Below the pieces are notes generated by a model that worked only from the letters and a program-made list of their open reading frames with translations, made no database searches and was not told the DNA's origin. Made by a program: the position numbers and the translations under genes. 43,502 nt of DNA, taken from NCBI GenBank assembly GCA_041650355.1, contig JBAZLI010000001.1:1-43502 (forward strand). The letters run 5' to 3'. This document shows, in pieces, positions 7,312 through 43,502 of the stretch. The stretch comes from Candidatus Micrarchaeia archaeon (lineage in GTDB: Archaea; Micrarchaeota; Micrarchaeia; Anstonellales; Bilamarchaeaceae). How positions within the stretch are numbered: position 1 is the stretch's first letter; each line of letters opens with the position of its first letter.

Positions 7312-7419
7312 CGCACATACCTCTCATCAATCAACCGTTGTCCGGGTCTGCATTTACCTCCTGCGGGAAAACGGCGCTCTCCGCCCGTTTCTCCCTTCTT
7401 GCCGACGACCGGAGAATAT

Positions 7420-8877: not shown

Positions 8878-8950
8878 AAATCACACCTCATCCACGAACA
8901 TCATCCGTGCTTCCTTCGCGGTTTCCCGGCACGGATTATACTTTCTGTTT

Positions 8951-10136: not shown

Positions 10137-10218
10137 GGGGAATTTTCTCATGGATAGGAATAAAAAGGTGGACGATATAGGTTAAGCAGGCGATGCAGGA
10201 CCGGAAAAAGGAGATTGG

Positions 10219-22071: not shown

Positions 22072-22395
22072 TCAGGAGAACCTCGTGTTGCAGGCCGGGC
22101 ATCGGAGCATGTAGTAATCCGCCCTATACCCGCATATCGGGCACACGTAGATTGTTTTCTTGGCGCGCGCGAGCTCGGCCGCGAAATCGTACTTGCACTT
22201 CACGCACCTTTCCACGTCCAGCTCGTTGAGTTCTTTGCATTTCGGGCATTTCTTCTTGAACATGCTCTTCACGTGCACGCCGCAGTGCGGGCAGCGCTCT
22301 ACATCTAAAGTTATTTCTTTTCCGCAATTCGGGCATTTGGCCTTCCAGCCCTTTCCGCCGGTTTCCTTGCCAGTTACAAGGTCCATCAAACCCAT
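22072..22395 (-). CDS. Triple zinc-ribbon protein
   Basis: 107 aa with three CxxC...CxxC pairs (CPNC/CPHC, CPKC/CVKC, CPIC/CPAC). It starts 11 nt after the stop of the giant gene. Confidence 0.7.
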   Translation of the reverse strand: MGLMDLVTGKETGGKGWKAKCPNCGKEITLDVERCPHCGVHVKSMFKKKCPKCKELNELDVERCVKCKYDFAAELARAKKTIYVCPICGYRADYYMLRCPACNTRFS

Positions 22396-22406
22396 GGGAA
22401 CCCCCG

Positions 22407-25400
22407 CTACTTACCCTTTGGAGACTGGGTTATTGTCGGCTTTGCAGATGCAGCAGGCTGCGCCGAAGGCGTTTCTGCTTGGGGCGGTTGGGGCGGCCTG
22501 GATTTTGGTTGGACTAGGTTCACCATGTTTATTTCAAAATCCGGCATGCGCGAAGCAGGTTGCTTGAAAAGCTCTTCGTTGTCCAGCGAGCCGATTCCCA
22601 TGTGGGCAAGGTAGGAGCGCTTCTTTTCCCTTTCAGACTCGTACTCGTAAGCGAGCCTGGCTGAATCGTAGGCCGCAGACGCCTTGTACAGGGCGCCCAC
22701 AGGAGCGCTTTGTTCTATGGCAGCGCTTTCTTCTTTGGAAGGCTTGTGCCCGTGCACCAGATTGAAGCCGGCGCGCGTGTAATCCGCACTTTCCGGGTTC
22801 GAAACAGGGCCGCTCTTGCCCACTGTCACGGGCGCAAGCGTTTCCCCAGCTGGAGAGGAAAGATTGATTGTAAATGTCTCGGGGGCAGTTACAAATTCAA
22901 CCGCAGAATTGAACAGTTTCCGGTCTTTCAGCCGTTCTGCAAGTATCGCAACGTCCACGGCGGGCTTGGGTTCAGGTTCGGCTCCCTTAACCGTTTTGGC
23001 TTCCTTGACCAAGTTCGCCAGCAAGAACCTGTCCCCGGCATCGTCCCTTTCCAAGCGCCTCCCCCTGGAACCTTCGAAAACAGTGATTTTTTCTGGTTCG
23101 AGACGAACCGGGACATCGCCTGATTGCTCTCCTTTATCGGTGTAATTCTCCGTAACTATCGTCCTTGCAAGCGCCTCGGGTTTTGGGAGCTGGCCTCTGG
23201 AATTGAGGTTTACCGCGCTGGCCAAGGCGTCGCGATGGGAAGAGTTTTTTAGGTCGTATTGCTCGCCACCAATGTAGATAATTGGAGGTTCTTCTGGTTT
23301 AAGGTATTGGATTTCCACTTCGGGCCCAACTACGAGCTTATCTCTTTCATATCTGTAGGATTGGGCGTGGAACTGCGGTGAAATCGAAATTGGTTTTGCT
23401 GATTCGCTTTTCGGATCGAGCATCTGCTTGAGAATATCCCCGAAAGTGGGAACTCCCGCAAGCTTGGGCGCAAATAAATCGGTCTTCGGCATTCCGGCAG
23501 CTGAAAGCACGCTCTGTATAAGTCCGGAATTCTCGGCCTTCAGTTCCTCAGCGTTCTGCCACTCCGCCTTGCCTTTCGCATCCTGAGGAACGAGGAATTC
23601 CAAAATTCCGCCATTATTCCTTATTCTGACTTCCGATTTTTCATCTGGCTTAGAATTATCCAGGGCGATATCTACGGCCATTTCCAATGAAGTGGTCTGG
23701 GCAGACTGGTTCACTTTCTGTTCTATCCGCGCAGCAGCGGAGTGTGGAACCGAGTAAGTGATAGTTTCTTCGTGCGCGTCCGAAGCGTGCTTTTCCATAT
23801 ACTTGCGCGCAGCGTCGCGCGCCTCGTCCTTCAGCATTGCCGCAGCCATGTTCGGGGCATTTTCCGCAAGCCATTCCACACTCAAGTAGTTTTGGAGCGC
23901 TGCCTTATCTTTCTTCTCATCCCCGTAATTCCACATCCTCTGAGCCATGTGGGCGTTCGCAGAAGTGTAATCCGGTTCGGCATGACGCTCCACTGAAAGT
24001 TGTTGGGAGAGATACTGCTCTGGCTCCTTTTGGAGCGGTACGATGTATTGCTGGCTTCCTGACGCCTCGGTAAGTTTTTTGGAAAGCTCTTTCGCACTTT
24101 GCGTTGAATACAACACGCTGTCGGCGAGACCGTGGCTCAGTCCATAGAGCGCTGCCTGCAACTTAGAGTCCTCGTCCTTTGTCTGCTTCATGGCCTGATC
24201 AATAGCGCCAGTAAGATTTTGGGGGTTTTCCTTTATGCGCTCGTCATAAGTATTGAAGAATTCCTTGCTCCTAGTGCGCATGCCGTCTTCAATTTGTTCT
24301 ATCCGATTTCCTATCTCGATTTTTGAGAATCCCTGTGTCTTCAATTCCTGCTCTATGGCTGTTTGTTCGTCCTTTGTCAGGCTGGTCCTGAAGAAGGCGC
24401 TGAACACGGCAGTTTCGAACTTGGTCCTCTGGGTTTTAGGCAAACGCGCCCCCATTGCAAGCAGATCAACAAAGGTTGTTACGATCTTCTGATTTACGCG
24501 GGTTTCGGATATGCTGTGGTTTGCGGCATCGGCCATCATGCGACCGACGGTTTCGGAATCTTTTTCATCCAGTTGCTGAGACATAGATTTTACCAAACCA
24601 TCTATGACGCTTCTAGCGCCCTCGTTCGGATAAGAATAATCCGCCTTTGCTTGCCCTGCCGTGACAAGCTGCTGAACAAGCGCCTCAGAAGCTTTTTGGA
24701 ATTCCTGGTAGCTGATGCCGCGGGACTGTAGGAAGGACCTTGATTCCTGCTCGAAAATAATCCTGCTTTGTTCTGCCGGGCTGGCAGTCAATATTTCATC
24801 CACGCGCTTCTTTAGCCCGGATGAAACCGCGTCAAGTGCCGGGCTTTCTATTCCAAGGGCTTTCTGGGCTACAGACAACTGTTCGAACTGCCTGATTGTT
24901 ATGGGCTCCTGCCTCATGAGGCTGAATGAAATCCTGGCAAAATTGGCTTCGGTTTCGTTCAGCTTGGCAGTTGCTATTTTTGACTCCAGTTCGCTCTGTG
25001 CAGGTATTTTTTCTGCGACGATGTCTTTTATTATTGAGATGAGGGGCTTGCTCGCTTTGCTACGCACTAAGGAAGCGTTCAAAACCGAACTTTCCAGTCT
25101 GAGCTCGGGTTTGATGAGCAGTTCTGGGAGCATGATTTCATTCAGCACAGGAGTGGCTTCCTGCCTCGCCTTCTTGAAGTTCTCTGAGAAAACGTCGAAC
25201 GCCTGCGCAACCTGACCCAGGTAAAGCCCGTGCTTTTTCGCATACACTGCAGGATCAGCCAGGAAATCCCTGATTTTTTCCGAATCGGCAATTCCGTCTT
25301 TGCCAATGAGTTTTGCATCGCGCATTATTTTCTCCGCCTGTGCCTCGTTCATGCTCCGATTGTATATTTTGTTTGCGACCGAAGATGCGAGCATGGTTCC

Positions 25401-28400
25401 GAATATCGAGCCCACGGCAGTAGTGGCGAACACGCTGCCGAACGCCCTGCCGAAGGAAAGTCCCTGCATGTACGCCCTCTGGTTCAGGAGCTCCTGCGCG
25501 ACCCGGTAAACATTATCGCTGACCATCCCTGAGCCGCCCTTATTCGTTTGATTATAGCGCATTTGGAGGGCTTCTAAATGGGTGATTGGGTCCTCCCCCG
25601 CCTTAATCCTAGCCAGTTGTTCGGAATTTAACTTCTCTGGTGTCTGTTTTGCCTCGATGAGTTTCTGGTTGACGTCTCGGTCTATGCTGTTCACAAGGCG
25701 CACTGCTTTTACCGTGTCCTTCATTTCCATCAGGCTGGAGAATCCAGTCAGCGCAGTGATGAACCTGAATATCTGCCTTGAGAAGCTGGCTTGCTCCTGG
25801 ACACGTATTTTCCCGCCTTTTGCAAGGGACGCGATGTAAGTGGTTCCCCTTGGGCCGGCAAGAGTTATGCTCCTATTACTTTTCAGCCCCAGATTGCCAA
25901 GCTCGCTGCGCTGCTTGTCCGAGAGCTTCACGCCTATTGCTCCCAGCTGTTTTTCAATCTCCGTAGTATCCCCATATGCAACGGATTTCTTCCTGGCCGC
26001 GTCCATGCTCTGATAGACTATCCCTGCGAGCGAGCTGAGCGCCGCGCCCCGCATTCCCAGGAATCCCAGCATGCCAATCCATCCTGCTCCTGCTCCGGTT
26101 CCCATGCCGAACTGACGCGCCATGTTCGGATCCACCCTGAGCTGGGATGCTGCGGAATCCTGGACTTTTGAAACCGGCTTCGCTGGCCCGCCTTGCGCAA
26201 TCTTCGCGCCTGCGGCGGATATGTCCCCGCCGAAAAGGGTCATCGCGAGTCTGCTGCCCAGGCCGACGCCCTTGGATTCCGCGCTGGGCGCAACAAGGTT
26301 CTTTATGTTTCTGAAAGGTGCGGATTCCTGCTTTATTGTCTGCTTCACGAAGCGCACGAAGAAGCCCGGGCCTTTTGCCTGCGTTCCAGCGGCTTGCTTG
26401 CCAGCACCTGCGTCCTGTTTTGAGGCGGCCGCGCTGTCTTTTGATTTGGACTTGTCGCCCCCTATTCCGAAACTGGCGATTCTCCCCATCGTCTTGCCGA
26501 CGCTCATCATCGTCTTGCCTAAGCCGCTAGTCGGACCGGCCATCGGCTTCACTGCGGAACTCCCGACTCTGGTTCCGACTCCGGCCATGGTCTGGGTGCT
26601 CACCCTGAACCCAGTCATCATCCCCCTCGGGCTGTACCTGATGTGCCGCCCTACCCTGAGCGGGGAAAGGTCCAGGAACCCGAACGGGTTCCGTCCTGTG
26701 TAGTAAAGCGCGGCCATGAGCAGGCCGAAGAGTATGAATATCGGTATACACAGGCTCTGCTGGAGCTGCGCGTACAAGTCCTGCGCATCCGGGGATATGT
26801 CTATCTTCTTCAGCGCAGGGAGAAGGTAGTGCCTTTCCATGCTCGCCTCGGGCTGGTTGGGCATGGTTGGTATGGTGTCCACGCTGTAAATCCCGTTGGC
26901 GTCCCTGTACGCATCGTCAACTCCAGAAGCGTTGAGGCACATCTCGAAGCCGCACTCCTCGTAGAAACAGCAGTATATGAAAGAGTATTCTTTCCTAGCG
27001 TCCTTCCATCCAGAATAGTCTAAATAAGCTACGCCCTGGCCGTCGGTCACTATCTTGGTTAGGTACCTGTCAGTTGAATTCCGTATCCAAACGGCTATTG
27101 GCGCTCCAGGGACAGGCTGGCGCGTGCCGGTGCTCGCGTTGTCGAAATACAGCACTGCTTTTATCTTGTTCGCGCCGGACTGCGTGGTGAGGAGTATTGT
27201 GCTCGGATCGAAATCGTTCACGTTCTCGCACTCGTCGCAGCCGGACGGGTGGCCGTTCACAATCACGGTGCGGTATCCAGTCCCATCGTAATTCTCGGCA
27301 GAATCCAGGGCGAACACGCGGTAGCGGAACTCCCCGTTGCCGAGCTTCACGTTTATACTGCAATATTGGAATGCGCCGGAATTGGTGGGCTCGAAGCTCA
27401 TGTTGCCCATGAGCTCAGAGCTTGTCTGGTTCCAGACTTCAATTACGCAAGCGGATATGAAAGTGTGCCTGTTGTTGTCGCTTGCGCTCAGGTTGAGTGT
27501 GAAGGTGCTGGAATTCACGGTTTCGCCGTCGTAGGGATTGTAAATGCGGCTCTTGGCCTGGGAGCGCTGGCCGAACTCTATAGTGGGAACCGTGCGGTCC
27601 ACGCAGAAGTAGGCGGGTTTCGAAAGCTTGGAGACTGTGGGTGCCGGCGAATAGGAGCAGTTCACCACGAGCGGGTAGCAGCCTTCGGCGCGCGCGGTGC
27701 TTATGCCCCCTATGCCCACGGTCTCGTTCACGCCCAGCGAATCCGAGCCGGAGAGCGGCGGCATCAGGTGGCATGCGTAATTACCTGGAACCTTAGTGAG
27801 GATGGAGAACGTTATGAGCTGGTTCGGCTCCTGCGTCGCGGCTACGTATTCCTTGCGGTCGTAGCGCTCCCTTGCGTCCAGAGCCCTTCCGTTCATCGAG
27901 TCAGGGCGCACAGTGAAATCCGAGCCCTCGTGCACCGCGAGCGGGTGGGAATCGTTAAGATATTCTCCTGCGGCCACGCTGGGCGGATAGTCGCAGAAAC
28001 AGTCTCCGTCAAGGTTCTCGCACGTGTCTGAAACTCCGGTGCTGCTTGAGCTGGTCCACGCGTTCCCGCCTTTCGTGCCGCAGCCCAGTATGTTGGTACC
28101 CCCGGAGGGAGTTATGCTCGCGGCCATGTCCGTGCTTTCGTTGTCCACGAAAACCCTGCAGTCGTTGAAACGGTTGTCGTAAAAAGACGAATGGGAGCAG
28201 TTGAATAGCGACATGCACGTTCCTGCCATGGAGAAGTTGTTGCTCCACAAATCCGAGTCCGGGCAATCGAAAAGCTGGACTGCTCCGTCCCAGAAGTTCT
28301 CCATCACCGTGTTCCTGCTCACCACGAGGCGCGGGGAGTAGGAGGCGAATATGCCTGCCGCAAGGATGTTTTCAGGCTCGAACTCCGGGTTGCCGTATTT

Positions 28401-30386
28401 TGGCGGAAAATAATCGAAATTTATTATCCTGTTTTTGTTTATCGTGGCGTCTTGGGAGTTGTTGAGCAGAATCCCAATGTCAACGCTGGAGATGTTGTTG
28501 AAGCTTACACCCAGGTTGGAGGAATCGGAGCCTGCGATCGCTATCCACGCGCGGTCGATGACATTGGAGGTTACTTCGCTCTGGGAAGAGAGGTTGAGGA
28601 GCACGCTTATGTTCGAGATGTTCATTATGGAGTTCGAGCGCACGTAGACTTTCGAGCGGAAGGCGCTGATGCCTGCTTTGCTCAGCCCCACCTCACTGCT
28701 GGAGATGGTGCTGGTTCCTGAATCCGTGAGGTTCACGGCTATTTCGCTGTTGTTGTAAAGCGCTGACGAATCCACCGTGAGCTGGGACTGCTCGGCGTAA
28801 ATCCCTACTACGCTCTTCGTTATGGTGCTTCCGTTTACCATGCTGCCCCCGGAATCCAGCAGAACTAGCGAATGCTGCGGAAAGACAGGGGAAAGCATGG
28901 ACATATGGTCGGTAACGGTTGTTCTCATCATTTTGAAGCCCGGGGAGTTGTTCACTAAAACCCCCAGGGAGCTGTGGTTCACCAGGGTGTCGTTAAGGTC
29001 GAAATCCGCGGAATCCTGTATGCGCACGTTTATTGCAGGCACGTTCGCAACCGTGGAGGATGAAAGCGAGGATTGCGGCGAATCAACAGCAACAAATCCC
29101 TCCGTGGAGCCGTTCAGCCACGCGCCGGAAACGCTGGTTTTTAGTGAATTGTTAAGCAAGATCGTATAGCAGATGCCCGGCCCTGTCGGCATCGGAATCC
29201 TGACTTTGGAAATTGCTCCTTCCTGGGAATCCGCCGAATATATGCCAGAGCTAAAAGGCTGAGTGCTGCAAGGCACCCCTGAGATATTGGTGTTGATTAC
29301 GAAAAACTTATTTGAAGATATGATTGAAAAGCCGAAATCCGCGGAGCTCGCATTTGAATCGGAAATTCCGCAATTTTCGCAACTGTACAAAAGGCCGAAC
29401 GCGGACGGCGCTTCCGTGTATTGCAGGTTAAAAATTTTGGAACCCGAGATATGGACATTCTCGGAATCTTCCGTAACAAAGCCGTAAGCGCTTTGGGAGA
29501 TGCTGCTTGCTGAAACCGAAACGCCTTTGGAGGATCGGATGTTCAGCCCTGAAAAAATATTGAGCGAGAGGTTGCAGGATGACATTGCAATTCCATCATA
29601 GTTAAGGACGTAAACTCCGGTTTCCTCATTGGAATAGAAGCTTGAGCGGGCTATTTCCGCGTCCGAGCCAGAACCTGACAGACGCAGGCCCTCCTTGTTT
29701 TCATAAAATTGTGAGTCGTATATTTTTAGGCTCGACATGCCGTTTATGTCTGCACCGGCAAAGGTGCTATGGAAGAACGATGAACGGGATATCGTAAGGC
29801 CGCTGAGGTCGCCAGAAAACGTCGAAAGGCCGTACCTGAAACCGGACACGCTGCAGTTCTCAACGGTGACCCCTGAGCCTCGGACAAATATGCCGTAGCC
29901 GCACGAGCCGGAGCAGGCAATTTGTTTGTTGTTGCAGTTCAATGTCAAATCAGTGGCGTTTATTTCAAGGCAGGTTCCGCTGTCTGCAGACAAACTGTTG
30001 GCCAGCGTGCACGTCCTTCCGCTGCTTGAAGATTCTATCTTTCCGCAGGAAGTGAGCGGAACGTCGAAGTGGTTGGAGCTGCTATAGCCCATTATATTCT
30101 GCCCTCCGGAATCGGTGTAATTGCACACCACCTCCCATTCGTGGCGGCACGGCCCTATATTGCTGTAGTTGAACGTGCAATTCTGGCTCACGTTGCACAC
30201 CTGATATGCAGATATCACCGTTCCGTCCAGGGTTAGGTTGCATGTAACGTTGGTGGCCCCTGGAAAATCCATGGGGGTCCAGTTGAACGCCACGTCAGCG
30301 CCCTGCGCAGGGCTGCCAGGGGTTGTGAATGTCCTGGCCACGTATGCCGAGTGGGAAAACGCGCAAAGCAGTATGAGCAAGAGCAA
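22407..30386 (-). CDS. Giant single-pass membrane protein: signal peptide, Cys-rich parallel beta-helix ectodomain, one TM, 1428-aa Cys-free cytoplasmic domain
   Basis: 2659-aa uninterrupted ORF with a TTG start and a hydrophobic leader. PbH1/NosD-like repeats span about aa 140-760. Further beta-rich Cys-containing modules run to aa ~1190. The TM is LCIPIFILFGLLMAALYYTG (nt 26694-26753). The tail begins Gly/Met/Lys-rich, continues as a long helical K/E/Q-rich domain and ends in a Pro/Gln-rich terminus. Confidence 0.85.
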   Translation of the reverse strand: MLLLILLCAFSHSAYVARTFTTPGSPAQGADVAFNWTPMDFPGATNVTCNLTLDGTVISAYQVCNVSQNCTFNYSNIGPCRHEWEVVCNYTDSGGQNIMGYSSSNHFDVPLTSCGKIESSSSGRTCTLANSLSADSGTCLEINATDLTLNCNNKQIACSGSCGYGIFVRGSGVTVENCSVSGFRYGLSTFSGDLSGLTISRSSFFHSTFAGADINGMSSLKIYDSQFYENKEGLRLSGSGSDAEIARSSFYSNEETGVYVLNYDGIAMSSCNLSLNIFSGLNIRSSKGVSVSASSISQSAYGFVTEDSENVHISGSKIFNLQYTEAPSAFGLLYSCENCGISDSNASSADFGFSIISSNKFFVINTNISGVPCSTQPFSSGIYSADSQEGAISKVRIPMPTGPGICYTILLNNSLKTSVSGAWLNGSTEGFVAVDSPQSSLSSSTVANVPAINVRIQDSADFDLNDTLVNHSSLGVLVNNSPGFKMMRTTVTDHMSMLSPVFPQHSLVLLDSGGSMVNGSTITKSVVGIYAEQSQLTVDSSALYNNSEIAVNLTDSGTSTISSSEVGLSKAGISAFRSKVYVRSNSIMNISNISVLLNLSSQSEVTSNVIDRAWIAIAGSDSSNLGVSFNNISSVDIGILLNNSQDATINKNRIINFDYFPPKYGNPEFEPENILAAGIFASYSPRLVVSRNTVMENFWDGAVQLFDCPDSDLWSNNFSMAGTCMSLFNCSHSSFYDNRFNDCRVFVDNESTDMAASITPSGGTNILGCGTKGGNAWTSSSSTGVSDTCENLDGDCFCDYPPSVAAGEYLNDSHPLAVHEGSDFTVRPDSMNGRALDARERYDRKEYVAATQEPNQLITFSILTKVPGNYACHLMPPLSGSDSLGVNETVGIGGISTARAEGCYPLVVNCSYSPAPTVSKLSKPAYFCVDRTVPTIEFGQRSQAKSRIYNPYDGETVNSSTFTLNLSASDNNRHTFISACVIEVWNQTSSELMGNMSFEPTNSGAFQYCSINVKLGNGEFRYRVFALDSAENYDGTGYRTVIVNGHPSGCDECENVNDFDPSTILLTTQSGANKIKAVLYFDNASTGTRQPVPGAPIAVWIRNSTDRYLTKIVTDGQGVAYLDYSGWKDARKEYSFIYCCFYEECGFEMCLNASGVDDAYRDANGIYSVDTIPTMPNQPEASMERHYLLPALKKIDISPDAQDLYAQLQQSLCIPIFILFGLLMAALYYTGRNPFGFLDLSPLRVGRHIRYSPRGMMTGFRVSTQTMAGVGTRVGSSAVKPMAGPTSGLGKTMMSVGKTMGRIASFGIGGDKSKSKDSAAASKQDAGAGKQAAGTQAKGPGFFVRFVKQTIKQESAPFRNIKNLVAPSAESKGVGLGSRLAMTLFGGDISAAGAKIAQGGPAKPVSKVQDSAASQLRVDPNMARQFGMGTGAGAGWIGMLGFLGMRGAALSSLAGIVYQSMDAARKKSVAYGDTTEIEKQLGAIGVKLSDKQRSELGNLGLKSNRSITLAGPRGTTYIASLAKGGKIRVQEQASFSRQIFRFITALTGFSSLMEMKDTVKAVRLVNSIDRDVNQKLIEAKQTPEKLNSEQLARIKAGEDPITHLEALQMRYNQTNKGGSGMVSDNVYRVAQELLNQRAYMQGLSFGRAFGSVFATTAVGSIFGTMLASSVANKIYNRSMNEAQAEKIMRDAKLIGKDGIADSEKIRDFLADPAVYAKKHGLYLGQVAQAFDVFSENFKKARQEATPVLNEIMLPELLIKPELRLESSVLNASLVRSKASKPLISIIKDIVAEKIPAQSELESKIATAKLNETEANFARISFSLMRQEPITIRQFEQLSVAQKALGIESPALDAVSSGLKKRVDEILTASPAEQSRIIFEQESRSFLQSRGISYQEFQKASEALVQQLVTAGQAKADYSYPNEGARSVIDGLVKSMSQQLDEKDSETVGRMMADAANHSISETRVNQKIVTTFVDLLAMGARLPKTQRTKFETAVFSAFFRTSLTKDEQTAIEQELKTQGFSKIEIGNRIEQIEDGMRTRSKEFFNTYDERIKENPQNLTGAIDQAMKQTKDEDSKLQAALYGLSHGLADSVLYSTQSAKELSKKLTEASGSQQYIVPLQKEPEQYLSQQLSVERHAEPDYTSANAHMAQRMWNYGDEKKDKAALQNYLSVEWLAENAPNMAAAMLKDEARDAARKYMEKHASDAHEETITYSVPHSAAARIEQKVNQSAQTTSLEMAVDIALDNSKPDEKSEVRIRNNGGILEFLVPQDAKGKAEWQNAEELKAENSGLIQSVLSAAGMPKTDLFAPKLAGVPTFGDILKQMLDPKSESAKPISISPQFHAQSYRYERDKLVVGPEVEIQYLKPEEPPIIYIGGEQYDLKNSSHRDALASAVNLNSRGQLPKPEALARTIVTENYTDKGEQSGDVPVRLEPEKITVFEGSRGRRLERDDAGDRFLLANLVKEAKTVKGAEPEPKPAVDVAILAERLKDRKLFNSAVEFVTAPETFTINLSSPAGETLAPVTVGKSGPVSNPESADYTRAGFNLVHGHKPSKEESAAIEQSAPVGALYKASAAYDSARLAYEYESEREKKRSYLAHMGIGSLDNEELFKQPASRMPDFEINMVNLVQPKSRPPQPPQAETPSAQPAASAKPTITQSPKGK
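28107..29969 (-). repeat. Right-handed parallel beta-helix (PbH1-type) repeat region within the giant protein
   Basis: Segments of ~22-25 aa recur with the pattern (N/S)xx(I/V)xxSx(I/F/V)xxNxxxG(I/V), for example ENCSVSGFRYGLS, ISRSSFFHSTFAGADI and IARSSFYSNEETGVYV. Confidence 0.7.
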
Positions 30387-30402
30387 TATTTTCTTTATGT
30401 CA

Positions 30403-35354: not shown

Positions 35355-38300
35355 ACCATTTGGGTAAGCCTGCTCAAATCTATTTCCTCTCCCATCAGGC
35401 GCCCCACATACGCTGCCGCTGCAGCGGCTCCGAGAAGCGCCATCGTTGGGAGAAGCACAGAGTAGAAGAAAGCTTTCATCGAGATTCCTGCAGCGAACGC
35501 CATGTCGCCTGGCTGCACTTCAGGGCCGTTGTAGCCGCCTCCGCTGAATGCGTTCGCGGAAACCTTGAGGCTGCTCTCCAGGTGCGGGGCAGGTATATTG
35601 ATTAGGTCAGGGTCCGTGGAGCCCACGGTCGCGTAGAGCACTGCAAGGATTGACGGATACACTACGTAGAGCGCGAAGAGCACTGCCAGAAGTATCGAGC
35701 CGAAGCCGCGCATGAACGGGAGCGAGCGCGTCACTATGGCTATGGGGAACATGAACAGGAACAGCCCGCTTCCCACATACTTGAGGAAGAATATGTGCAT
35801 GAACGCCGAGAAGAATGAGAGCGTCGCGGAATTCATCAGGAGCATGAAGCCCGAAGACATGTAGGAAGCGCCGGCCTGGGGGGACGTGGACGCTCCTGTG
35901 CCGCCTATGGAAAGGAAGCACCAGAGCGGGCATTTCCATGTCGAGTAAACCTCTTCTATATTTATCGCGCCCAAGTAGTACCTGTTCTCCAGTATGGCGA
36001 CGTGCGAGAGCTTCGCGGCCCTGAGCAGGTACGCCTCCGCGCCTTCATAAACTGACGCAGAGGAGGTGGAAGCGGCGCCCACTATGGAGGCCATGTCAGC
36101 AACCGTGAACAGGCAGAACGAGTTGAGCAGCACTATCATTATGAATATGAACGCTGCGGACATCACGAGCTGCACTGCCTCGGTCCTTGACCATACTGAA
36201 AGTTTGGGGTCGCTCAGCGCCTGGGAAGCAGCGAACACCAGCCCTATAATCATCGCGGCAAGTATTCCTGCTAAAAGCGAAACCGGGTAGATGTTCTCGT
36301 TGAGCACAGTGTAGAAGTCCTGGGAGCAGAAGAAGCCCGAGCCGCCTGGCTGGCCTGAGCTGCTGACCTCGAAAACCACTTCCCGCTGCATCATGCCGCC
36401 TGCAGCGCTGAACGCGTAAACGTGCAGGGTGTGCGTTCCATCGGAAGGGTCCAGCGTAATCGGCCCGCCGCATTCCACGTCTGTTTCAGGGCCGCTGTTG
36501 AGCTTCCACGAGCAGCGCACCGCCCCGCTTACATCGTAGTCCACGTGCACCGGCGTTGAAGTTACGTTCTGTCCTGAGACCGGGCTGTTTATTGTGAGCG
36601 CGAGGGGAGCCGCAGTGTCCACAACGAAAGAGACGCTCGCGCTTGCTGTGTTGCCTGCGCTATCCCTTGCTGAAACGGTCACTGTGTGGGGAAGCGAGGA
36701 AAGCGAGCCGAGCGTAATGTTCATGCAGCTGGGAAGAGGAATTGGCCCCCCTGAATCGAGCGCATAGCTGCACGAGGCGTTCTCGGAAATCGAATATTGG
36801 AGCGGTATTGAAGATTGATAATACGTCTTGCCCTCAGGGCTGGCTATGCTGATTGCCGGCGGAACGCTGTCCACCGTGAAATTGACCGTAACGTTCACTA
36901 TGGTGGTGCCGTTGGTCGCGTAAACCGCGAGCGCGTGCCTGCCTTCTGCGAGGGACGCGAGGGTGGCGTTCCAGCAATTCGGAAGGTTAACGCTCGCTCC
37001 CCCGTCCAGGGTGTACCAGCAGGAGCTCGCGAGCTTCACAGTGTAGTTCAGCCTCGCTGCAGTGACGTTGTAAACTTTCTGGACAGGGCTCTGCACCTGG
37101 AGCGAGAGTGCGTTGCTGGTTATCTGGAATGTAACGTTCACTATTGCTGAATGGCAGTTTTGGTCCCTTGCATGCACCTTTACGGTGTGGTTGCCCACAC
37201 CCAAGCCAGTTGGGGTAGCATTCGAGCAGTTAGCCAAACTTTTGTAAGGGCCGTTGTCCACGGCGTATTCGCATATATTGAATCCCGCGGCAGTGTAGTT
37301 GAGCTCGATGGGGGTAAACGGAGGATATACACCGGCTTCGAGCGGGCTCTGTATGGTGAGGTTCGGGTCAGGATACGTGTTTATGCCTGCGAGCCACATG
37401 GAATACGGGGTTGGTGATGAATAAGAAGTTGCGCCTGCCGCCACGTAGCTGGTGTCGGACAGCGGAATCACCGCGGAGATGCTGTTCACGCCCCTGAACG
37501 TCTCGTTAGCGGTCATGTTCCCTTCCGAATCCAGTTTTGAAATCATAGCCCCGGTCCCGCTGCAGCCTGCTCCTTGCCCGCCTAGCACATAGCCGCCGTC
37601 CGGGATCTGCGTGATTGAGTTGGCCCGCGTGGCAGAAGAAAATTCATATGCTTTCTCCCAAACCACGTCGCCGTTGCCGGCTGTTTTTACAATGTATATT
37701 CCTAGATACTTGTCGCCGGCGAGCACGAATCCGCCTGGAATTGAAATCAGGGAATTGCCGTATTCCCACCCGTCGCTTTCGCCATAGGTCCTGTTCCAAA
37801 GGTGCGTGCCGGCAAGGTCGGTCCTTATGAGCCAGAAGTCAGAATTGAAGGAACCTGGAGGAGTGATGTCCCCGAGCACGGCGTAGCCGTCGGGAAGCGC
37901 GACAATTTCCCTGGCCAGGTCGCTTTGGCTCCCTCCGAACGTTTTGCTCCAGTCCACCGCGTGGCTGCTTTCGTCAACTTTGAAGAGCAAAACGTCACTG
38001 TAGAATGCCGGGGCCGTGTATCCAACAGCCACGTAGCCGCCCGGGCCGGCCACGACTGAAATTGCTGCCTGTCCCCCTGCGCCGCCGTAAGTGACGTTCC
38101 ACAAGTGGTTGCCGTTCCGGTCAAGAGCGATTATCCACGCGTCACTGCCCACGGCGCCGAAAGATTCCGTGGAGCCGGCCACCACGTAGCCGCCGGGAGT
38201 TTCTATTATGCCGTTTCCCTGGTCTATTCCTGAGCCGCCGAACGTCTTCTGCCAAACGAGGTTGCCGCTCAGGTCTGTCTTTACCACGTAAATGTCCGAC

Positions 38301-38506
38301 GGCGCGCTGTAGTCGCTCGGGCTGGTGCTTCCGGCCAGCAGGTAAGCGTCTGATGTTTTTATCATGGTTGAAAGCGAAGATGCACCTGAACCCGGGAACG
38401 TCCTGTTCCACTCCACGCCGAAAATGGCGAACGAGGATGAGGAGAGCAGGGCCGCGGCTAGCAGGAGCACGAATGCCTTTCCGCCTGCAAACTCCGTTGT
38501 CATCAT
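35351..38506 (-). CDS. Paralog E: signal peptide, 7-blade beta-propeller-like repeats, 4 Ig-like repeats and the family membrane module
   Basis: ATG 38506 overlaps the upstream stop (ATGA). The protein is 1051 aa. The C-terminal ~315 aa carry the signature FPIAIVTRSLPFMRGFGSILLAVLFALYVVYP and the tail GEEIDLSRLTQMV. The upstream 191 ORF codons overlap paralog D and were rejected. Confidence 0.85.
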   Translation of the reverse strand: MMTTEFAGGKAFVLLLAAALLSSSSFAIFGVEWNRTFPGSGASSLSTMIKTSDAYLLAGSTSPSDYSAPSDIYVVKTDLSGNLVWQKTFGGSGIDQGNGIIETPGGYVVAGSTESFGAVGSDAWIIALDRNGNHLWNVTYGGAGGQAAISVVAGPGGYVAVGYTAPAFYSDVLLFKVDESSHAVDWSKTFGGSQSDLAREIVALPDGYAVLGDITPPGSFNSDFWLIRTDLAGTHLWNRTYGESDGWEYGNSLISIPGGFVLAGDKYLGIYIVKTAGNGDVVWEKAYEFSSATRANSITQIPDGGYVLGGQGAGCSGTGAMISKLDSEGNMTANETFRGVNSISAVIPLSDTSYVAAGATSYSSPTPYSMWLAGINTYPDPNLTIQSPLEAGVYPPFTPIELNYTAAGFNICEYAVDNGPYKSLANCSNATPTGLGVGNHTVKVHARDQNCHSAIVNVTFQITSNALSLQVQSPVQKVYNVTAARLNYTVKLASSCWYTLDGGASVNLPNCWNATLASLAEGRHALAVYATNGTTIVNVTVNFTVDSVPPAISIASPEGKTYYQSSIPLQYSISENASCSYALDSGGPIPLPSCMNITLGSLSSLPHTVTVSARDSAGNTASASVSFVVDTAAPLALTINSPVSGQNVTSTPVHVDYDVSGAVRCSWKLNSGPETDVECGGPITLDPSDGTHTLHVYAFSAAGGMMQREVVFEVSSSGQPGGSGFFCSQDFYTVLNENIYPVSLLAGILAAMIIGLVFAASQALSDPKLSVWSRTEAVQLVMSAAFIFIMIVLLNSFCLFTVADMASIVGAASTSSASVYEGAEAYLLRAAKLSHVAILENRYYLGAINIEEVYSTWKCPLWCFLSIGGTGASTSPQAGASYMSSGFMLLMNSATLSFFSAFMHIFFLKYVGSGLFLFMFPIAIVTRSLPFMRGFGSILLAVLFALYVVYPSILAVLYATVGSTDPDLINIPAPHLESSLKVSANAFSGGGYNGPEVQPGDMAFAAGISMKAFFYSVLLPTMALLGAAAAAAYVGRLMGEEIDLSRLTQMV
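36365..37366 (-). repeat. Four tandem ~83-aa Ig-like repeats with a conserved Cys pair
   Basis: Each unit opens with L(T/S)(I/V)xSP, contains C(E/W/S)(Y/W)x(L/V)(D/N)xG...(N/S/E)C, and ends with V(T/N/S/V)F. Confidence 0.75.
37382..38419 (-). repeat. Seven ~50-aa beta-propeller-type (SBBP-like) repeats
   Basis: The pattern W(N/Q/S/E)(R/K/V)T(F/Y)GG...GGY(V/A)(V/L)AG recurs at WNRTF, WQKTF, WNVTY, WSKTF, WNRTY and WEKAY, plus a degenerate seventh (ANETF). Confidence 0.7.
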
Positions 38507-39435
38507 ATCAGCCTGCCCAAAGCGTGAACGTCCACCTCTGCCCCCGCGATGGAGGAAAGGTACCTTATGGAAATGACCGCGACCGCGAGCGAAACCACCA
38601 CGCACAGCGTGGCGTCCATTATCGCGTAGTACAGGAGCGGGCGTATTATGGCGTCGCGGTTTTGTATCGCGCCCTGGAACGTCGCTATGGCCGCGTTCTC
38701 GTTGCCTGTCCCCTGGATCGCGTAGTGATCGCACGATTGGACGTTTATGGGCGAGGGGTCCGAGACTGGAACGCTCGGGTCCGCAATTATGCCGTGAAGG
38801 TAGCTGTAAGTTATGGGCATCACGACGTAAAACGCGAGCCCCACCGCCATCAGGAGCCCGCCTGCGCCCCGCGTGTACTTGAACGTGCGCATGAAGAGGC
38901 CGAGCGGGAAGAAGAGCGTGAATATGTACGTCTCGGCGAAATCCATCAGGAACATCATGCCCTGGAGCTCTGCGAGCGCGGTCGCGGTGAGCTGGAAGCC
39001 CAGTGAAAGCGCCGGGCCAAGCATCCTGAATCCCGAGCAGGAGCTGACGCCGAAGCCCGCGGCAGAGAAGCTGCACCATATGGACTTGCTCCCTTCCTTC
39101 CCGAGTTCCATCGCGGCTTTTCCGAGTATGCCGTTTATATCGGTTATCTTGTCTATCGTGGCGCCCACGTCCGCAGTGGCGCTTATGTGCGCGCCCTGCA
39201 CGATGGGCTGCACCACTGCTATGAATCCGGCCACCATGACCGCGGTGATCATCACCTGGAACAGTTCCTCTTTTGCAAGGAATTTCAATTCGTTGGATTC
39301 AATGCCATAGCCTACTGCGAACAATATGCCGAGCGCAGCGACCGACGCGAGTATCGCCACTATGCTGAGGTCCTGCCACGCAGACTGGGCAAAGGCAAGC
39401 GGAACCAGCAGGAGCGCGAGCATCAGTTTTTTCAT
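38503..39435 (-). CDS. Polytopic membrane protein, paralog D
   Basis: 310 aa with the signal peptide MKKLMLALLLVPLAFA. The signature is FPLGLFMRTFKYTRGAGGLLMAVGLAFYVVMP and the tail is GAEVDVHALGRLI. The ATG abuts the upstream TGA. Confidence 0.85.
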   Translation of the reverse strand: MKKLMLALLLVPLAFAQSAWQDLSIVAILASVAALGILFAVGYGIESNELKFLAKEELFQVMITAVMVAGFIAVVQPIVQGAHISATADVGATIDKITDINGILGKAAMELGKEGSKSIWCSFSAAGFGVSSCSGFRMLGPALSLGFQLTATALAELQGMMFLMDFAETYIFTLFFPLGLFMRTFKYTRGAGGLLMAVGLAFYVVMPITYSYLHGIIADPSVPVSDPSPINVQSCDHYAIQGTGNENAAIATFQGAIQNRDAIIRPLLYYAIMDATLCVVVSLAVAVISIRYLSSIAGAEVDVHALGRLI

Positions 39436-41673
39436 TCACAGCACCTTCGCGTAGCCCGGAATTTCGAAGTCCCCTCCGAATATGGGCGAGAATCCCCTGA
39501 TGAACATGAGCGTGACCGCGATGTTGATGAGCGGCAGCAAATAGGCCGGAAGGAGCATCCGGCTCACGTTCTTTATGTCCTCCCTCCCGAACATGCCTTC
39601 GCTGGATTTTTTCGCGAATTCGGCAGCGGTGAGGAGCGCGGGCTTGAGGAACGTCCCGGTAGTGCAGTCTTCGGCGCAGCTGAGCGCCACGTAGGGCTTG
39701 AAGAAGCAGTAGTCCTTGGGAACGTCCAGGCAGGAATTGCACCTCGCGCTAGGCTTGGAGCAGTTGCGCCCGTAGCACTGGCACGTGTGCGTGTTGTTGT
39801 TCCAGAACCTGTCGCTCGGGTGGTTGAGGCACGTACCCGCGGTGTTCGAGGAGCACTCGTAGTGCCGCACCACCTGCAGGTCGGTCCCAGTCACCACTTC
39901 CTCGTTGTCAGGGCTTTCGTCCACGCTCGGCTGCTGGGAAACCGTGACGTTGCCTCCGCTCGTGGTCGCGTAAAAATTCGCGCAGTCGCTCACCCCTTCC
40001 ACGAAAATGCAGCACTCCGGACCCGAGCACTCACAGTCCGGCATCTCGGGAACTATGTAGGCGCAGGATTCCGCAGGGTCCATGTCGGCCTTGCAGTTCA
40101 TCGTTGCCTGCGAGTAATCGTTCGTGTAGGTTGCCCCGGTCGTAGGGTCGGTAAGGCTGGATTGGGTGCAGCTTTCTGGCCTTCCGGAAATGTCGCTCAC
40201 CACCTGGCCCTGCGCGTCGAGCGTCTGTCTCAGAAGCGCAATCCGGCAGTTGAACGGCGCGGAAACCGGGCTGGAATAGCTGAAACCCGGCTCGAAGCAG
40301 GACGTGCAGTCCGCGTTGAGCGGCGCAATCACCTTGCAGTCGTCGGGGCAGATAGGGGTATTGTCTGCATTAAGGCAAACGTCCGAAGACCCGCCCGCTA
40401 TTGCCACTTCCCGGACTATTTTGCACCCACGGGGCATTTCCATGCACGCGAGCTCGACTTTCGCGTTGGAGCATTCATAGATTGAGTAGGGATATGGAAG
40501 TTCCCTGCAATAGTCCGGGCAATAGTAGTCCCCGAACTCGTTGTTGTGCCCGTTCCGGGCATGGGTGGAATTTATTTCAATGGAGATGTTCTCGCACGAG
40601 CCTGCGTTCCCGTACGAAAAGCGCGAGCCGTTCTCCAATCCTTCCAGGATGGCGCGGCGCTCAGATTCGGATATTGTGCTCCCGGAAGGCTTGTTATCCT
40701 CTATTATCTCGGTTATATTGTAATATCCGGTACTTTGGTCCGAAATGGAATACGCAATCGGCGCCTCCATCCCGCATTCCTTCGGGCAGTCCGGGTTCGG
40801 CATCGCGAAAAGCCGGTCGCCGTAAACGGCAACATTGAGCGTTATCATGTTCCACAGGTACATCATCGGGAAGACGAACATTATGCCCAGCGCGACAGCC
40901 ATGAGCATGCCGCCGGCGCGCCTGGTGAGGAAGAAGCCGCGCCCCACTATCCCTATCAGCAGGAGCACCGGCCCGACCAAGTAAGCAACCTTGTTCACGA
41001 AGAACTGCTGCACCCCGAGCGCGTATATTATCGAGCCGAACATCTCTATTTCCTGGTTGTAGCGCTCCACGTCCAGTATGAGGAAGCCGTTGTTCGCCCA
41101 GCTTATGTAGCCCCAGAGGCAGGGCGGAATCAGGAGCGTGCCGCAGGAAAACGTCTGCCTTTCCGATGCTGTGGAGCCTGCGCTCACGCTCGCGGTGAAA
41201 GCTGAACGCGAGCTTTCCTGGGAAAGGTTGATGAGGCCGTCTAAGTAGACATTGGAGACCTTTATCAGGCAGAATTCAGAAGAGTCGCACTGCACCGGGC
41301 TTCCGGGCGACCTGTTCACCTCGTCCGCGACCGCCATGTCCACGAAAACCAGGCATCCTATTGTGGCTAGCACTATCACCACAGTCACTATCGTCTGGGC
41401 CCACTCCACGTTCGCCCATGCCTTGAGGTCGGGAAGGTTGAGCGGGTCTGCAATCATGCGCGCGAACCCCACGAGGAACACCATTATCAGCGCTAATGTT
41501 ACCGAAAGCTCCTTCCACTGGTTGAGAATCCCGGTGGAGTAGAAGGGCGAGCCTGCTTCCACAGCGCCCAGGCCCTGCTCGGTCTCCTTCACGACTTCGC
41601 TCACGTTGGATGCAGCGGCAAACGCGGAGCCTGCCAGAACGGCAAACAGCAGGAGCAATAGTATCCTTCTCAT
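39436..41673 (-). CDS. Paralog C: family membrane module split by a ~400-aa Cys-rich extracytoplasmic insertion
   Basis: ATG 41673 overlaps the upstream stop (ATGA). The protein is 745 aa. The signature is LIGIVGRGFFLTRRAGGMLMAVALGIMFVFP. An insertion at aa ~290-690 holds ~32 Cys, including CPKEC, CPDYC and CPDDC. A final TM follows, then the tail GGDFEIPGYAKVL. Confidence 0.85.
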   Translation of the reverse strand: MRRILLLLLFAVLAGSAFAAASNVSEVVKETEQGLGAVEAGSPFYSTGILNQWKELSVTLALIMVFLVGFARMIADPLNLPDLKAWANVEWAQTIVTVVIVLATIGCLVFVDMAVADEVNRSPGSPVQCDSSEFCLIKVSNVYLDGLINLSQESSRSAFTASVSAGSTASERQTFSCGTLLIPPCLWGYISWANNGFLILDVERYNQEIEMFGSIIYALGVQQFFVNKVAYLVGPVLLLIGIVGRGFFLTRRAGGMLMAVALGIMFVFPMMYLWNMITLNVAVYGDRLFAMPNPDCPKECGMEAPIAYSISDQSTGYYNITEIIEDNKPSGSTISESERRAILEGLENGSRFSYGNAGSCENISIEINSTHARNGHNNEFGDYYCPDYCRELPYPYSIYECSNAKVELACMEMPRGCKIVREVAIAGGSSDVCLNADNTPICPDDCKVIAPLNADCTSCFEPGFSYSSPVSAPFNCRIALLRQTLDAQGQVVSDISGRPESCTQSSLTDPTTGATYTNDYSQATMNCKADMDPAESCAYIVPEMPDCECSGPECCIFVEGVSDCANFYATTSGGNVTVSQQPSVDESPDNEEVVTGTDLQVVRHYECSSNTAGTCLNHPSDRFWNNNTHTCQCYGRNCSKPSARCNSCLDVPKDYCFFKPYVALSCAEDCTTGTFLKPALLTAAEFAKKSSEGMFGREDIKNVSRMLLPAYLLPLINIAVTLMFIRGFSPIFGGDFEIPGYAKVL

Positions 41674-42749
41674 CCGAGCACCTTCAGCGCCTTGTTCACA
41701 GAGGTCATGAACGCGATGAATATTATTATGGTTATGTTGGGCAGCAGGAACGCCTGGGGGTAGAGCCTTGCGACAGCGAGCAGGTTCGCAGGGGAGTCGC
41801 ACGCGAGCGCCTGGTTCGGGCCGCCCGTGGTTTCTGCTTCCCCGCCCCAGATGGAAACCGGGTCTGCTATCACGTCTTTGTACCTGTCGCAGTCCTGCGG
41901 GGTGAACGTGTACTGGTACATTATCGCGTTCAGCGCCACGAACACCGGTATTATCAGGTAAATCCCCACGGAGAACGCGATGAGCATGTTCCCTATCTGG
42001 CGTGTGGGCGCGAAGAAGCGGAGCACGAACGCGCCGGGCAGGAGAAGCCCGAGGATTGCGGAGGTGTTCACACCCTCCGGGCCCTCCGTCTTGTAGCCCA
42101 CGAAGTAGCGCATGAATATGTCCTGCGTGTATATGCTCACGTAGGCGGGTATCACGAACATGTTGTTCACGTTGTCTATGAACGCGGCTTGGGAGCGCAT
42201 GTACGCCTTGGGCGCGAACGTGGTCCCGGAAAGAAGGCCGTAATAGCTCACGTAACCCGAGGCCTTGAGCTGCAGGTCTATGTTGGCTTTCGTGTATGTG
42301 TTGATTATCTCCTTCGCGTCGGATTCCATCAGGCGCATGTAGCACACGGAAACGGACTGCACGTCCGTGCTTTCCCCGTAGCACGGGTCGTTGAGCGAGC
42401 CTTTGTTTATGTTCTCGTAGGCGAAGTTGAACGCGCTCCCGACGAGCGCGCAGCTCACGCTCATTATCATTCCGAACAGGACGAGTATCGCTATTGAAAC
42501 GCCCAGATGGAAAAATTCATCCTTCACGAGCAGGATGTACTCCTGCCTGTTCAGGGCGTAGGCAACCATGTATATGAGCGCGAGCGCCGCGATGGTTGTG
42601 AATATTATGAGCGCAATCAAGCCCCCTGCACCGTCGTCTATCATCCTGCGCACTGAATCGGCTGCGCACTGACCTGCGCCTACTTCAAGGGTTGGGGCTG
42701 CGCTGGCGAGGGCGATGAAAAGCAGGAGCAGGAGCGCGGATTTTCTCAT
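41670..42749 (-). CDS. Polytopic membrane protein, paralog B
   Basis: ATG 42749 overlaps the upstream stop (ATGA). The protein is 359 aa with the signal peptide MRKSALLLLLFIALASA. The signature is LPGAFVLRFFAPTRQIGNMLIAFSVGIYLIIP. The tail has diverged (NKALKVLG). Confidence 0.85.
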   Translation of the reverse strand: MRKSALLLLLFIALASAAPTLEVGAGQCAADSVRRMIDDGAGGLIALIIFTTIAALALIYMVAYALNRQEYILLVKDEFFHLGVSIAILVLFGMIMSVSCALVGSAFNFAYENINKGSLNDPCYGESTDVQSVSVCYMRLMESDAKEIINTYTKANIDLQLKASGYVSYYGLLSGTTFAPKAYMRSQAAFIDNVNNMFVIPAYVSIYTQDIFMRYFVGYKTEGPEGVNTSAILGLLLPGAFVLRFFAPTRQIGNMLIAFSVGIYLIIPVFVALNAIMYQYTFTPQDCDRYKDVIADPVSIWGGEAETTGGPNQALACDSPANLLAVARLYPQAFLLPNITIIIFIAFMTSVNKALKVLG

Positions 42750-43502
42750 ATCAATCTCTCCAGGCCCGCTATGGCCAGCTCCCCGCCAAGGGCTGATGAA
42801 AGGCTCCTTGCAACGAGGATTGTGAATCCGCCCACGAACACCGCTTCCATTATGGGGAGCGCGGACGCGCTGCTCACCGGTATTATCAAATGGTTCATTA
42901 CTATGTCGTGTATCGCGCCCGCGTCTGCCCCTATCGCGCTCTGCATCCGCTGGGAAGCCGAAACCATCGCAGCCGAGGATACGAGCATGAGCGCCATCTG
43001 GGTGAAATTGTAGAACTGGTACGAGATTCCCCACCAGCACCACCCTGCTATGGGCGCGAGGCAATGCCACAGGCCGGTCAGCAGACAGCACGCGAGGCAG
43101 AGCGGGATGCATATTATTGCCCACCAGCCCCATTCGCTCAAAGATGTGAACACTCTTATGAAATCGTTGGTGCACAAGCCCACGAGGAAAGATGGGAGGT
43201 GGAGGGAAACTTTCCCCAGGTCCTCGGCGGTTATCATCGAGTGCTGAACATCCACGTTGTCGTGAATTTCCGCAGCTAGCGCCATCGCGAACGGGTACGC
43301 GAATATTCCTGCTATCGCGAGGCCGAGCAGGGTCCCGCCTATCTTCCTGGTGAAAGGTATGAAACGGAGCGCGAAGCCTATGGGCAGTATCGCGGTGATG
43401 GATATGCTGAACAGGAAGCGCATGAAAAGAATCATCGCCTCGTAGACCAGGATTCCTGTGGAGATGTTGGACGCGAGCACAGAAAGGGACTGCATGAGCC
43501 CG
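42746..43502 (-). CDS. Polytopic membrane protein, paralog A (5'-truncated by the window edge)
   Basis: The frame stays open to the window end. The signature is LPIGFALRFIPFTRKIGGTLLGLAIAGIFAYP and the tail is GGELAIAGLERLI. The other paralogs have 230+ aa before the signature, so the true start lies beyond 43502. Confidence 0.8.
   Translation of the reverse strand, partial: GLMQSLSVLASNISTGILVYEAMILFMRFLFSISITAILPIGFALRFIPFTRKIGGTLLGLAIAGIFAYPFAMALAAEIHDNVDVQHSMITAEDLGKVSLHLPSFLVGLCTNDFIRVFTSLSEWGWWAIICIPLCLACCLLTGLWHCLAPIAGWCWWGISYQFYNFTQMALMLVSSAAMVSASQRMQSAIGADAGAIHDIVMNHLIIPVSSASALPIMEAVFVGGFTILVARSLSSALGGELAIAGLERLI

Follow-up and report, generated by a model that had tools for sequence, protein, structure and literature searches.

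What could an archaeal cell build from six related membrane proteins, a cysteine-rich lipoprotein and a 2659-residue membrane protein that are all encoded in one row? This question is raised by a gene cluster of Candidatus Micrarchaeia archaeon (Bilamarchaeaceae; assembly GCA_041650355.1). The window, meaning the whole stretch of DNA that was analysed, covers positions 1-43,502 of contig JBAZLI010000001.1 on the forward strand. An earlier note on this DNA described a cluster encoding a family of polytopic membrane proteins (A to F), a lipobox-bearing protein (here the lipoprotein), a giant single-pass protein (here the Giant) and a zinc-ribbon protein, and called it a candidate envelope machine, a label that is reasonable. 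Micrarchaeota are tiny symbiotic archaea, and the cluster probably encodes an undescribed cell-envelope complex specific to them. In the favoured reading, to which a rough probability of 0.45 is assigned, A-F would form a hetero-oligomeric base in the membrane, with no motor of its own, on which variable surface proteins are borne and organised. This reading is favoured because the paralogs are ordered, the cores conserved and the ectodomains variable, and because the module includes a bitopic partner reaching into the cytoplasm, small cytoplasmic partners and a dedicated regulator, and no motor.

Conservation and order of the gene cluster

The gene order was surveyed by mapping the window proteins onto all open reading frames (ORFs) of 34 independent related loci. 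All six family members are present in 25 of these loci, and most of the others are cut by contig ends. The order A-B-C-D-E-F-lipoprotein is retained in 25 of the 25 complete loci, which span identities of F from 59% down to 25%, and an ortholog of A stands first in every one. For A, C, D, E and F the best match is always the gene in the corresponding position (25/25 each); for B this holds in 20/25. It follows that the six paralogs split before the sampled Micrarchaeota radiated, and from then on the set has stayed fixed and collinear. The earlier view of a co-conserved cluster, joining one polytopic membrane family to large Cys-rich envelope proteins, is thus upheld. The two outcomes named beforehand as contrary to it, confident profile matches and a lack of co-conservation, did not occur, with the order kept in 25/25 loci and no such matches obtained.

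The same data bear on the idea that each of the six genes arose by tandem duplication and works on its own, perhaps as one of several redundant membrane receptors, and that their clustering only records a history of duplication. Duplication is a common origin of tandem paralog arrays, and tight spacing is found genome-wide. However, each position forms a separate orthologous lineage in the same order throughout the complete loci, and copy number is steady except at one four-member locus. Independent copies would be expected to undergo gain, loss and shuffling. This explanation is therefore considered very improbable. The four-member array belongs to a divergent Micrarchaeota metagenome-assembled genome (MAG), LacPavin, in which A-, D-, C- and F-like members precede the contig end (L038:4386-9866); it may be a reduced or an ancestral form.

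The partner genes are linked with differing tightness. The lipoprotein gene follows F in 30 of the 34 loci, and the Giant gene lies either after it or divergently upstream. The Zn-ribbon gene is linked to the cluster in 14/34 loci, downstream or divergently upstream, and a gene for a 189-residue GNAT-like protein, paired with it in 12 loci, always accompanies it. This pair and a PadR regulator gene are linked to the cluster in several arrangements. The 189-residue gene, which lies outside the coordinates given in the earlier note, probably closes the module. Over the 34 loci, the median junction distance is -4 nt at the first two junctions (A/B and B/C) and between 0 and 2 nt at the other four (C/D, D/E, E/F and F/lipoprotein). 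F and the lipoprotein gene, 0 to 4 nt apart at the other loci, are separated by an additional stretch of roughly 0.9-1.1 kb in L024 and L033. Clustering of the flanking ORFs from 34-35 loci revealed no ATPase or other recurrent neighbour.

When each GTDB species was scanned through one representative genome, 32 loci were obtained, including Micrarchaeales and Bilamarchaeaceae (Anstonellales), and all but one carry the label Micrarchaeota or Micrarchaeia. The exception, L019, is labelled 'Candidatus ainarchaeum sp.', as is the closest relative of A (83% identity); another relative of A is labelled Micrarchaeota. The 25 complete loci likewise come from MAGs with the Micrarchaeota label, apart from two named 'Candidatus ainarchaeum sp.'. 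This name, borne by two cluster-carrying MAGs, is not in the copy of the NCBI taxonomy used and may be a garbled form of Iainarchaeum, a different DPANN phylum. Orthologs of F number 35 in the databases and come from Micrarchaeota in every named case. An exhaustive search with a profile hidden Markov model of these orthologs retrieved 2393 representatives (clusters at 50% identity) at E <= 1e-3, of which 1018 reached E <= 1e-10; in a sample of ten more divergent ones, all that were named were Micrarchaeota. One MAG, CSMAG_931 (DAOUYQ01), holds two copies of the cluster (L023 and L034), with identities of 59% for E, 53% for F and 39% for the lipoprotein, which reflect either a genuine whole-module duplication or the binning of two populations into one MAG.

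The A-F membrane family

Pairwise BLASTP similarity among A-F is weak, the best pair being D/F at 1e-12. Profiles built from the positional orthologs of the 25 loci and compared with hhalign relate all 15 pairs at 98.7-99.9% probability, with E-values from 1.6e-16 to 5e-32, the latter again for D/F. The six proteins are accordingly true paralogs of one family, as had been claimed. They have in common a motif, LPxGxxLRxFPFTRxxG, and a C-terminal tail, GGExxxLxRLI.

Each paralog is predicted to have five transmembrane (TM) helices, an outer N-terminus and a cytoplasmic C-terminus. This topology rests on hydropathy, the signal peptides of A-E, the ectodomain of E, the placement of Cys-rich insertions in predicted outer loops and that of Arg residues in predicted inner loops. 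The N-out orientation is fixed by E, because its ectodomain precedes TM1. The Arg-rich turn LRxFPFTRxxG, between TM3 and TM4, and the tail GGExxxLxRLI would consequently both lie on the cytoplasmic face. Across 70 family members only R225, G234 and P249 (numbering of F) are invariant, and P219 and R231 are nearly so; it is these residues that form the turn. Among F orthologs the invariant residues include W32, C105, C125, R225, R231, G234 and P249. No catalytic-looking conserved pattern was found in the 70 members, and the conservation appears structural rather than catalytic.

These features also bear on a possible uptake function, in which the paralogs would form a hetero-oligomeric pore, passive or driven by an ion gradient, that imports host lipids or metabolites captured or docked by the outer proteins. 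Micrarchaeota have incomplete lipid synthesis and lipids in common with the host (PMC8975820), the module lacks an ATPase and totals about 30 TM helices, and the conserved Arg/Pro/Gly turn on the cytoplasmic face could serve as a gate. However, the TM helices contain no conserved polar or charged residues that would hint at a substrate path, no likeness to any transporter family or fold was detected, and the argument is purely circumstantial. An uptake channel is therefore regarded as quite unlikely.

The membrane-base reading draws on the contrast between these conserved cores and the additions they bear. C is always the largest member (572-1603 residues over the 25 complete loci; the longest ORF in L027 would give about 1760); in the window it carries a Cys-rich insertion of about 400 residues in the outward loop between TM4 and TM5. 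E begins with a signal peptide, followed by a 735-residue N-terminal ectodomain, with weak matches to SBBP beta-propeller and Ig-like domains, and by the family core at residues 735-1051. E orthologs elsewhere have 332-437 residues, giving a range of 332 to 1051, and the ectodomain is, on this comparison, a lineage-specific addition outside the conserved core.

A structural model of F obtained with AlphaFold2 (AF2) is all-helical, with long helices at residues 60-97, 119-159 and 177-226 and a small outer beta-hairpin that bears the invariant Cys pair. Foldseek searches of this model against PDB and BFVD gave chance-level helical matches (best PDB match E 0.65, template modelling score (TM-score) < 0.3). 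Sequence searches were equally negative. Pfam and NCBIfam, applied to all nine proteins, gave no match for A-F (Pfam E <= 0.1) or for the lipoprotein. For the 70 family members at E <= 1, Pfam returned 31 families, which are treated as noise because each was matched by a single member. Two family profiles (A1 and A4) had zero matches among all PDB sequences at E <= 10. A-F thus appear to constitute a previously unclassified membrane family.

The lipoprotein, the Giant and the cytoplasmic partners

The described sizes and features of the partner proteins (60 Cys and an LLGC lipobox in the 1292-residue protein, one internal TM segment in the 2659-residue protein, and three zinc ribbons) proved correct. 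In the lipoprotein, an N-terminal module (residues ~115-280) and a C-terminal module (residues ~1000-1290) are conserved around a variable middle, and its length ranges from about 1130 to 2180 residues across loci. It has no Pfam or PDB-sequence match; searches of PDB sequences with the lipoprotein and the Giant tail gave nothing beyond one chance match at E 0.83. The middle part shows weak Foldseek matches to TIM-barrel glycosidases (best E 1e-3), with TM-scores of at most 0.12 on the query and in a low-confidence model with a predicted local distance difference test score (pLDDT) of 42; they are treated as no more than a hint.

The Giant has a signal-like N-terminus, a beta-helix ectodomain (residues ~1-1040), a juxtamembrane module (residues ~1045-1210), one TM segment at residues 1212-1230 and a cytoplasmic part, with 39 Cys in total. 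Pfam assigns the beta-helix part to Beta_helix (9.7e-29) and NosD (7.3e-24), in each case with a score that exceeds the curated cut-off. It is also present in the close ortholog of L007 and absent from distant orthologs, so it is considered an accessory, lineage-specific domain. The conserved core consists of the juxtamembrane ecto-module (~170 residues), the TM segment and about 110-130 cytoplasmic residues. The C-terminal 1430 residues evolve fast; they are assigned to the cytoplasm because they contain 0 Cys and few sequons and follow a K/R-rich stretch after the TM segment. The Giant is accordingly a predicted type I membrane protein. The earlier description of the whole protein as a large ectodomain therefore stands for its N-terminal half, which lies outside, and not for the last 1430 residues, which are Cys-free and inside the cell. 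The Zn-ribbon protein, with its three zinc ribbons, is predicted to be cytoplasmic.

Across loci, conservation is confined to the membrane cores and the modules next to the membrane. Several-fold differences in length mark the parts that face outward, which have taken up beta-helix, beta-propeller, Ig-like and Cys-rich modules; those at other loci include DUF7107 Cys-rich repeats and Ig-like domains. This pattern bears on whether the cluster is instead a housekeeping complex for envelope biogenesis or anchoring, acting as an S-layer tether or in pseudo-periplasm upkeep, shape or division, with no relation to host contact. Micrarchaeota possess an S-layer and a pseudo-periplasm of 20-25 nm (bioRxiv 10.1101/2021.04.28.441871), and something must span the latter. 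A housekeeping function would also suit the highly conserved membrane cores, the phylum-wide presence and the conserved chromosomal position beside ScpB, AAA_18 and aTrm56. Against it, the hypervariable, adhesin-type ectodomains differ even among close relatives, which is unusual for a pure scaffold, and the S-layer protein already known, with few Cys, is a member of another family, PF05123. This alternative is rated as unlikely.

The S-layer protein in question, SLP_Mh (Micr_00292; PF05123), is large and glycosylated, contains an S-layer N-terminal domain and has almost no sulfur-containing residues (bioRxiv 10.1101/2021.04.28.441871). It is, like the large proteins of the cluster, a large Micrarchaeota surface protein; the latter, in contrast, are Cys-rich (60 in the lipoprotein, 39 in the Giant) and have no PF05123 match. 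Identification of the large cluster proteins as the S-layer protein was rejected on the grounds of their many Cys and the lack of a match to PF05123 or any S-layer domain.

Comparison with known secretion and transport systems

The earlier note had expected the cluster to continue beyond the window edge, where an energising ATPase could lie. This expectation was not confirmed. Upstream of the window, the source contig (L001) contains only the remaining 151 codons of A, a spacer of about 50 nt, a divergent padR-type gene (PadR), AAA_18 and ScpB; the AAA_18 gene is small kinase-like. The full gene A encodes 403 residues and starts 455 nt past the window edge (L001:8793-10004). Given this content of the upstream contig, the operon begins with A, and the ATPase expected there is absent. 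No gene for a VirB4-, VirD4-, HerA-, FtsK- or PilT-type ATPase was found upstream or in the 34 related neighbourhoods. Within the cluster proteins, the only match to [AG]xxxxGK[ST] is APVTVGKS at residue 2518 of the Giant, in a non-P-loop context, which agrees with the claim that no true Walker A motif is present.

Type IV secretion systems (T4SS) and the archaeal Ced and Ted DNA-transfer systems are relevant comparisons. In these systems, as in the cluster, polytopic membrane proteins are operon-encoded, and in the rvh system of Rickettsiales VirB6/TrbL proteins are also tandem paralogs. These tandem VirB6 paralogs of Rickettsiales bear large extensions, and the organisms compared here as bearers of T4SS or Ced/Ted (Rickettsiales rvh) depend on another cell. 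The cluster differs in having no VirB4/HerA-type ATPase, no TrbL/VirB6 Pfam match, no structural match in PDB and no VirB2/B5-like pilins. The VirB4/HerA-type ATPase of these systems, usually joined by one of VirD4/FtsK type, is absent both beside the cluster and in L003-L006, and no VirB6/TrbL Pfam match was obtained for A-F at E <= 0.1 or for the 70 members at E <= 1.

Similarities to the mycobacterial Mce lipid-import systems are of another kind. In mycobacteria, six paralogous proteins, MceA-F, are encoded in a set order in one operon and thought to form an asymmetric heterohexamer, and one member is a lipoprotein; the ATPase MceG is encoded elsewhere, and the lifestyle is lipid-dependent. 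The cluster is alike in its six paralogs, fixed operon order, lipoprotein and lack of an ATPase in the operon, and a lipid-dependent lifestyle is common to both kinds of organism. However, its paralogs are polytopic with five TM helices, whereas Mce paralogs are single-pass MCE-domain proteins, and no MlaD/MCE Pfam match, YrbE permease, or Mce similarity in sequence or fold was found for the cluster.

Other systems could be compared more briefly. There is no ABC_tran gene in or adjoining the cluster and no permease Pfam match in the family, and neither the cluster nor the 70 members gave T2SSE or T2SSF Pfam matches indicative of a type IV pilus or archaellum. Profile and fold searches thus agree with the earlier statement that nothing can be assigned to Sec, Tat, ABC, the archaellum or an S-layer. 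The signal peptides are of Sec type with Ala-rich cleavage regions or a lipobox, and none is of class III as judged by eye, also in line with that note.

These results bear directly on the possibility, in line with the exporting or transfer apparatus suggested in the earlier note, of a secretion or transfer machine, T4SS/Ced-like or other, with the gene for its motor ATPase lying somewhere else in the genome. A multi-subunit membrane cluster with large exported proteins would suit such a machine, and precedents exist in the mce operons with their remote MceG and in the tandem VirB6 genes of Rickettsiales. Nevertheless, none of the motor genes sought occurs upstream or in the 34 neighbourhoods, the 70 members have no TrbL/VirB6 or other secretion Pfam match at E <= 1, and the best Foldseek match of F in PDB is at the chance level given above. 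In addition, the lipoprotein and the Giant need no dedicated exporter, because their signal peptides are of the ordinary Sec type. A secretion machine is consequently held to be distinctly unlikely.

Most lineage-specific families of DPANN archaea have no functional prediction and are predicted to be membrane-bound or extracellular, according to a survey (Castelle et al. 2021, PMC8204110). The cluster fits this description; no account of its six-paralog set, gene order or partners was found in the survey, whose main text names Micrarchaeota just once as far as was seen. No description of the cluster was found in the literature on cultivated Micrarchaeota and DPANN protein families. As far as the searchable literature and tools show, the cluster is undescribed and lies outside every family tested.

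Gene map, promoter and neighbouring genes

The coordinates are collected in Table 1. The ORF list and direct translation confirm that every gene from 43502 down to 22072 is on the minus strand. The sequence ATGA is present at the junctions 42746-42749 (A/B), 41670-41673 (B/C), 38503-38506 (D/E) and 34278-34281 (F/lipoprotein), GTGA at 35351-35354 (E/F), and TGA abutting ATG at 39433-39438 (C/D); the two spacers are 16 nt (lipoprotein/Giant) and 11 nt (Giant/Zn-ribbon). All of these agree with the earlier description. The public gene call for F uses an ATG two codons downstream, which gives 356 residues and a 2-nt spacer instead of an overlap.

Table 1. Positions of the cluster genes and of a separate MacB-type system in the window.
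Feature	Positions	Strand	Description
Paralog A	42746..43502 to beyond window	-	partial in window, C-terminal 251 codons
Paralog B	41670..42749	-	359 aa, signal peptide and 5 predicted TM segments
Paralog C	39436..41673	-	745 aa, 37 Cys
Paralog D	38503..39435	-	310 aa, minimal family form
Paralog E	35351..38506	-	1051 aa
Paralog F	34278..35354	-	358 aa from GTG, no signal peptide
Lipobox protein (lipoprotein)	30403..34281	-	1292 aa, 60 Cys, LLGC lipobox
Giant	22407..30386	-	2659 aa, TTG start, bitopic
Zn-ribbon protein	22072..22395	-	107 aa, 12 Cys, DZR Pfam 1.8e-10
GNAT-like protein	21465..22034	-	189 aa, Acetyltransf_1 E 0.005, below Pfam cut-off
ABC ATPase of MacB-type system	8951-9745	-	only ABC system of window
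Secreted protein of MacB-type system	7420-8877	-	485 aa; Ig-like, CARDB, NEW3 matches
MacB_PCD/FtsX permease	6088-7311	-	part of MacB-type system

The spacer between PadR and A (~50 nt, L001:8743-8792, outside the window) contains a central TATA-like box about 25 nt before the ATG of A. Such a box is found in this spacer in six loci (L001, L003, L014, L019, L024 and L033), for example AATATAAATATT. This suggests that the spacer may be a bidirectional archaeal promoter that yields short or leaderless mRNAs. PadR would control transcription from the promoter directly upstream of A.

Downstream of the 189-residue gene lies the housekeeping gene aTrm56 (20935-21468). The rest of the window is likewise of a housekeeping character, with genes for FttA, a proteasome subunit, Sua5, aspartate carbamoyltransferase, a DHH-family protein, an Obg-like GTPase and a Na+/H+ exchanger. 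The G+C content is uniform along the window, and no tRNA or Rfam element was found in it. An origin from a mobile element or virus was rejected on account of the housekeeping flanks, even G+C and kept synteny; the cluster is chromosomal, not mobile.

A separate MacB-type ABC system lies at 6088-9745 (-); other loci show no linkage between such a system and the cluster. ORFs of 164-456 residues without a Pfam match occur outside the cluster at 15095-16465 (+), 16655-17593 (+), 10182-11296 (-) and 12739-13233 (+). A 428-residue protein encoded beside ScpB (L001:6042-7328, -) has a marginal PP2C phosphatase match (E 1e-4, 22.5 bits, cut-off 20.3). In one lineage, a Lon_C protease-like gene (548 residues; 5 loci) follows the module (L003/L004:18265-21011), and this lineage also has a second PadR gene and an ABC ATPase gene after the module.

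Proposed assembly and its weighing

In the membrane-base reading, A-F would assemble in a fixed stoichiometry, most simply one copy of each. The lipoprotein and the Giant would dock on this base by their conserved modules, and their variable distal domains would reach through the pseudo-periplasm to the S-layer and the cell exterior. The juxtamembrane cytoplasmic stretch of the Giant, the Zn-ribbon protein and the GNAT-like protein would make up the cytoplasmic side. The role is likely to be surface organisation or contact with the host or the surroundings, not ATP-driven secretion; the preference for such a role over a purely housekeeping one is weak.

Several points weigh against this reading. 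Stoichiometry and ring geometry were guessed from how many genes there are and how they are coupled, and tight packing is equally seen in the adjacent ScpB, AAA_18 and PadR genes, so that spacing alone is unremarkable in a compact genome. Six members are not absolute, because L038 shows four. Presence throughout the group, next to housekeeping genes, would fit a basic role in the envelope or in cell biology equally well. The structural models contribute little: that of F is of moderate confidence only (pLDDT 74, predicted template modelling score 0.69), and that of lipoprotein residues 93-1292, based on a 10-sequence alignment, is poor (pLDDT 42).

A bolder proposal can be framed by analogy with connexons. 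A-F might form a heterohexameric large-pore channel or docking port that, together with the variable lipoprotein and the Giant, would recognise the host surface and receive or stabilise intercellular connections carrying lipids and metabolites to the symbiont. A host-derived nanotube, one connection of this kind, has been seen by cryo-electron tomography in the co-culture of ARM-1 with Metallosphaera (PMC11329633). This proposal is speculative and improbable; if true, the docking port would be the first symbiont-side molecular component of a conduit between a DPANN archaeon and its host.

Significance

The means by which DPANN archaea adhere to their hosts and obtain lipids and other compounds that they are unable to synthesise are an open question, and almost no components are known on the symbiont side. 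The cluster offers a defined set of ten co-inherited, envelope-located genes with fast-evolving outer parts, and this set appears to span the whole phylum. It also brings to light a large membrane protein family (2393 representatives) that has neither a Pfam model nor a structural relative. Because at least one locus belongs to Micrarchaeales, the order of the cultivated Ca. Micrarchaeum, direct testing in existing co-cultures is possible. Even if the cluster encoded a basic envelope scaffold, it would still represent a new kind of archaeal envelope complex, built with six differentiated paralogs.

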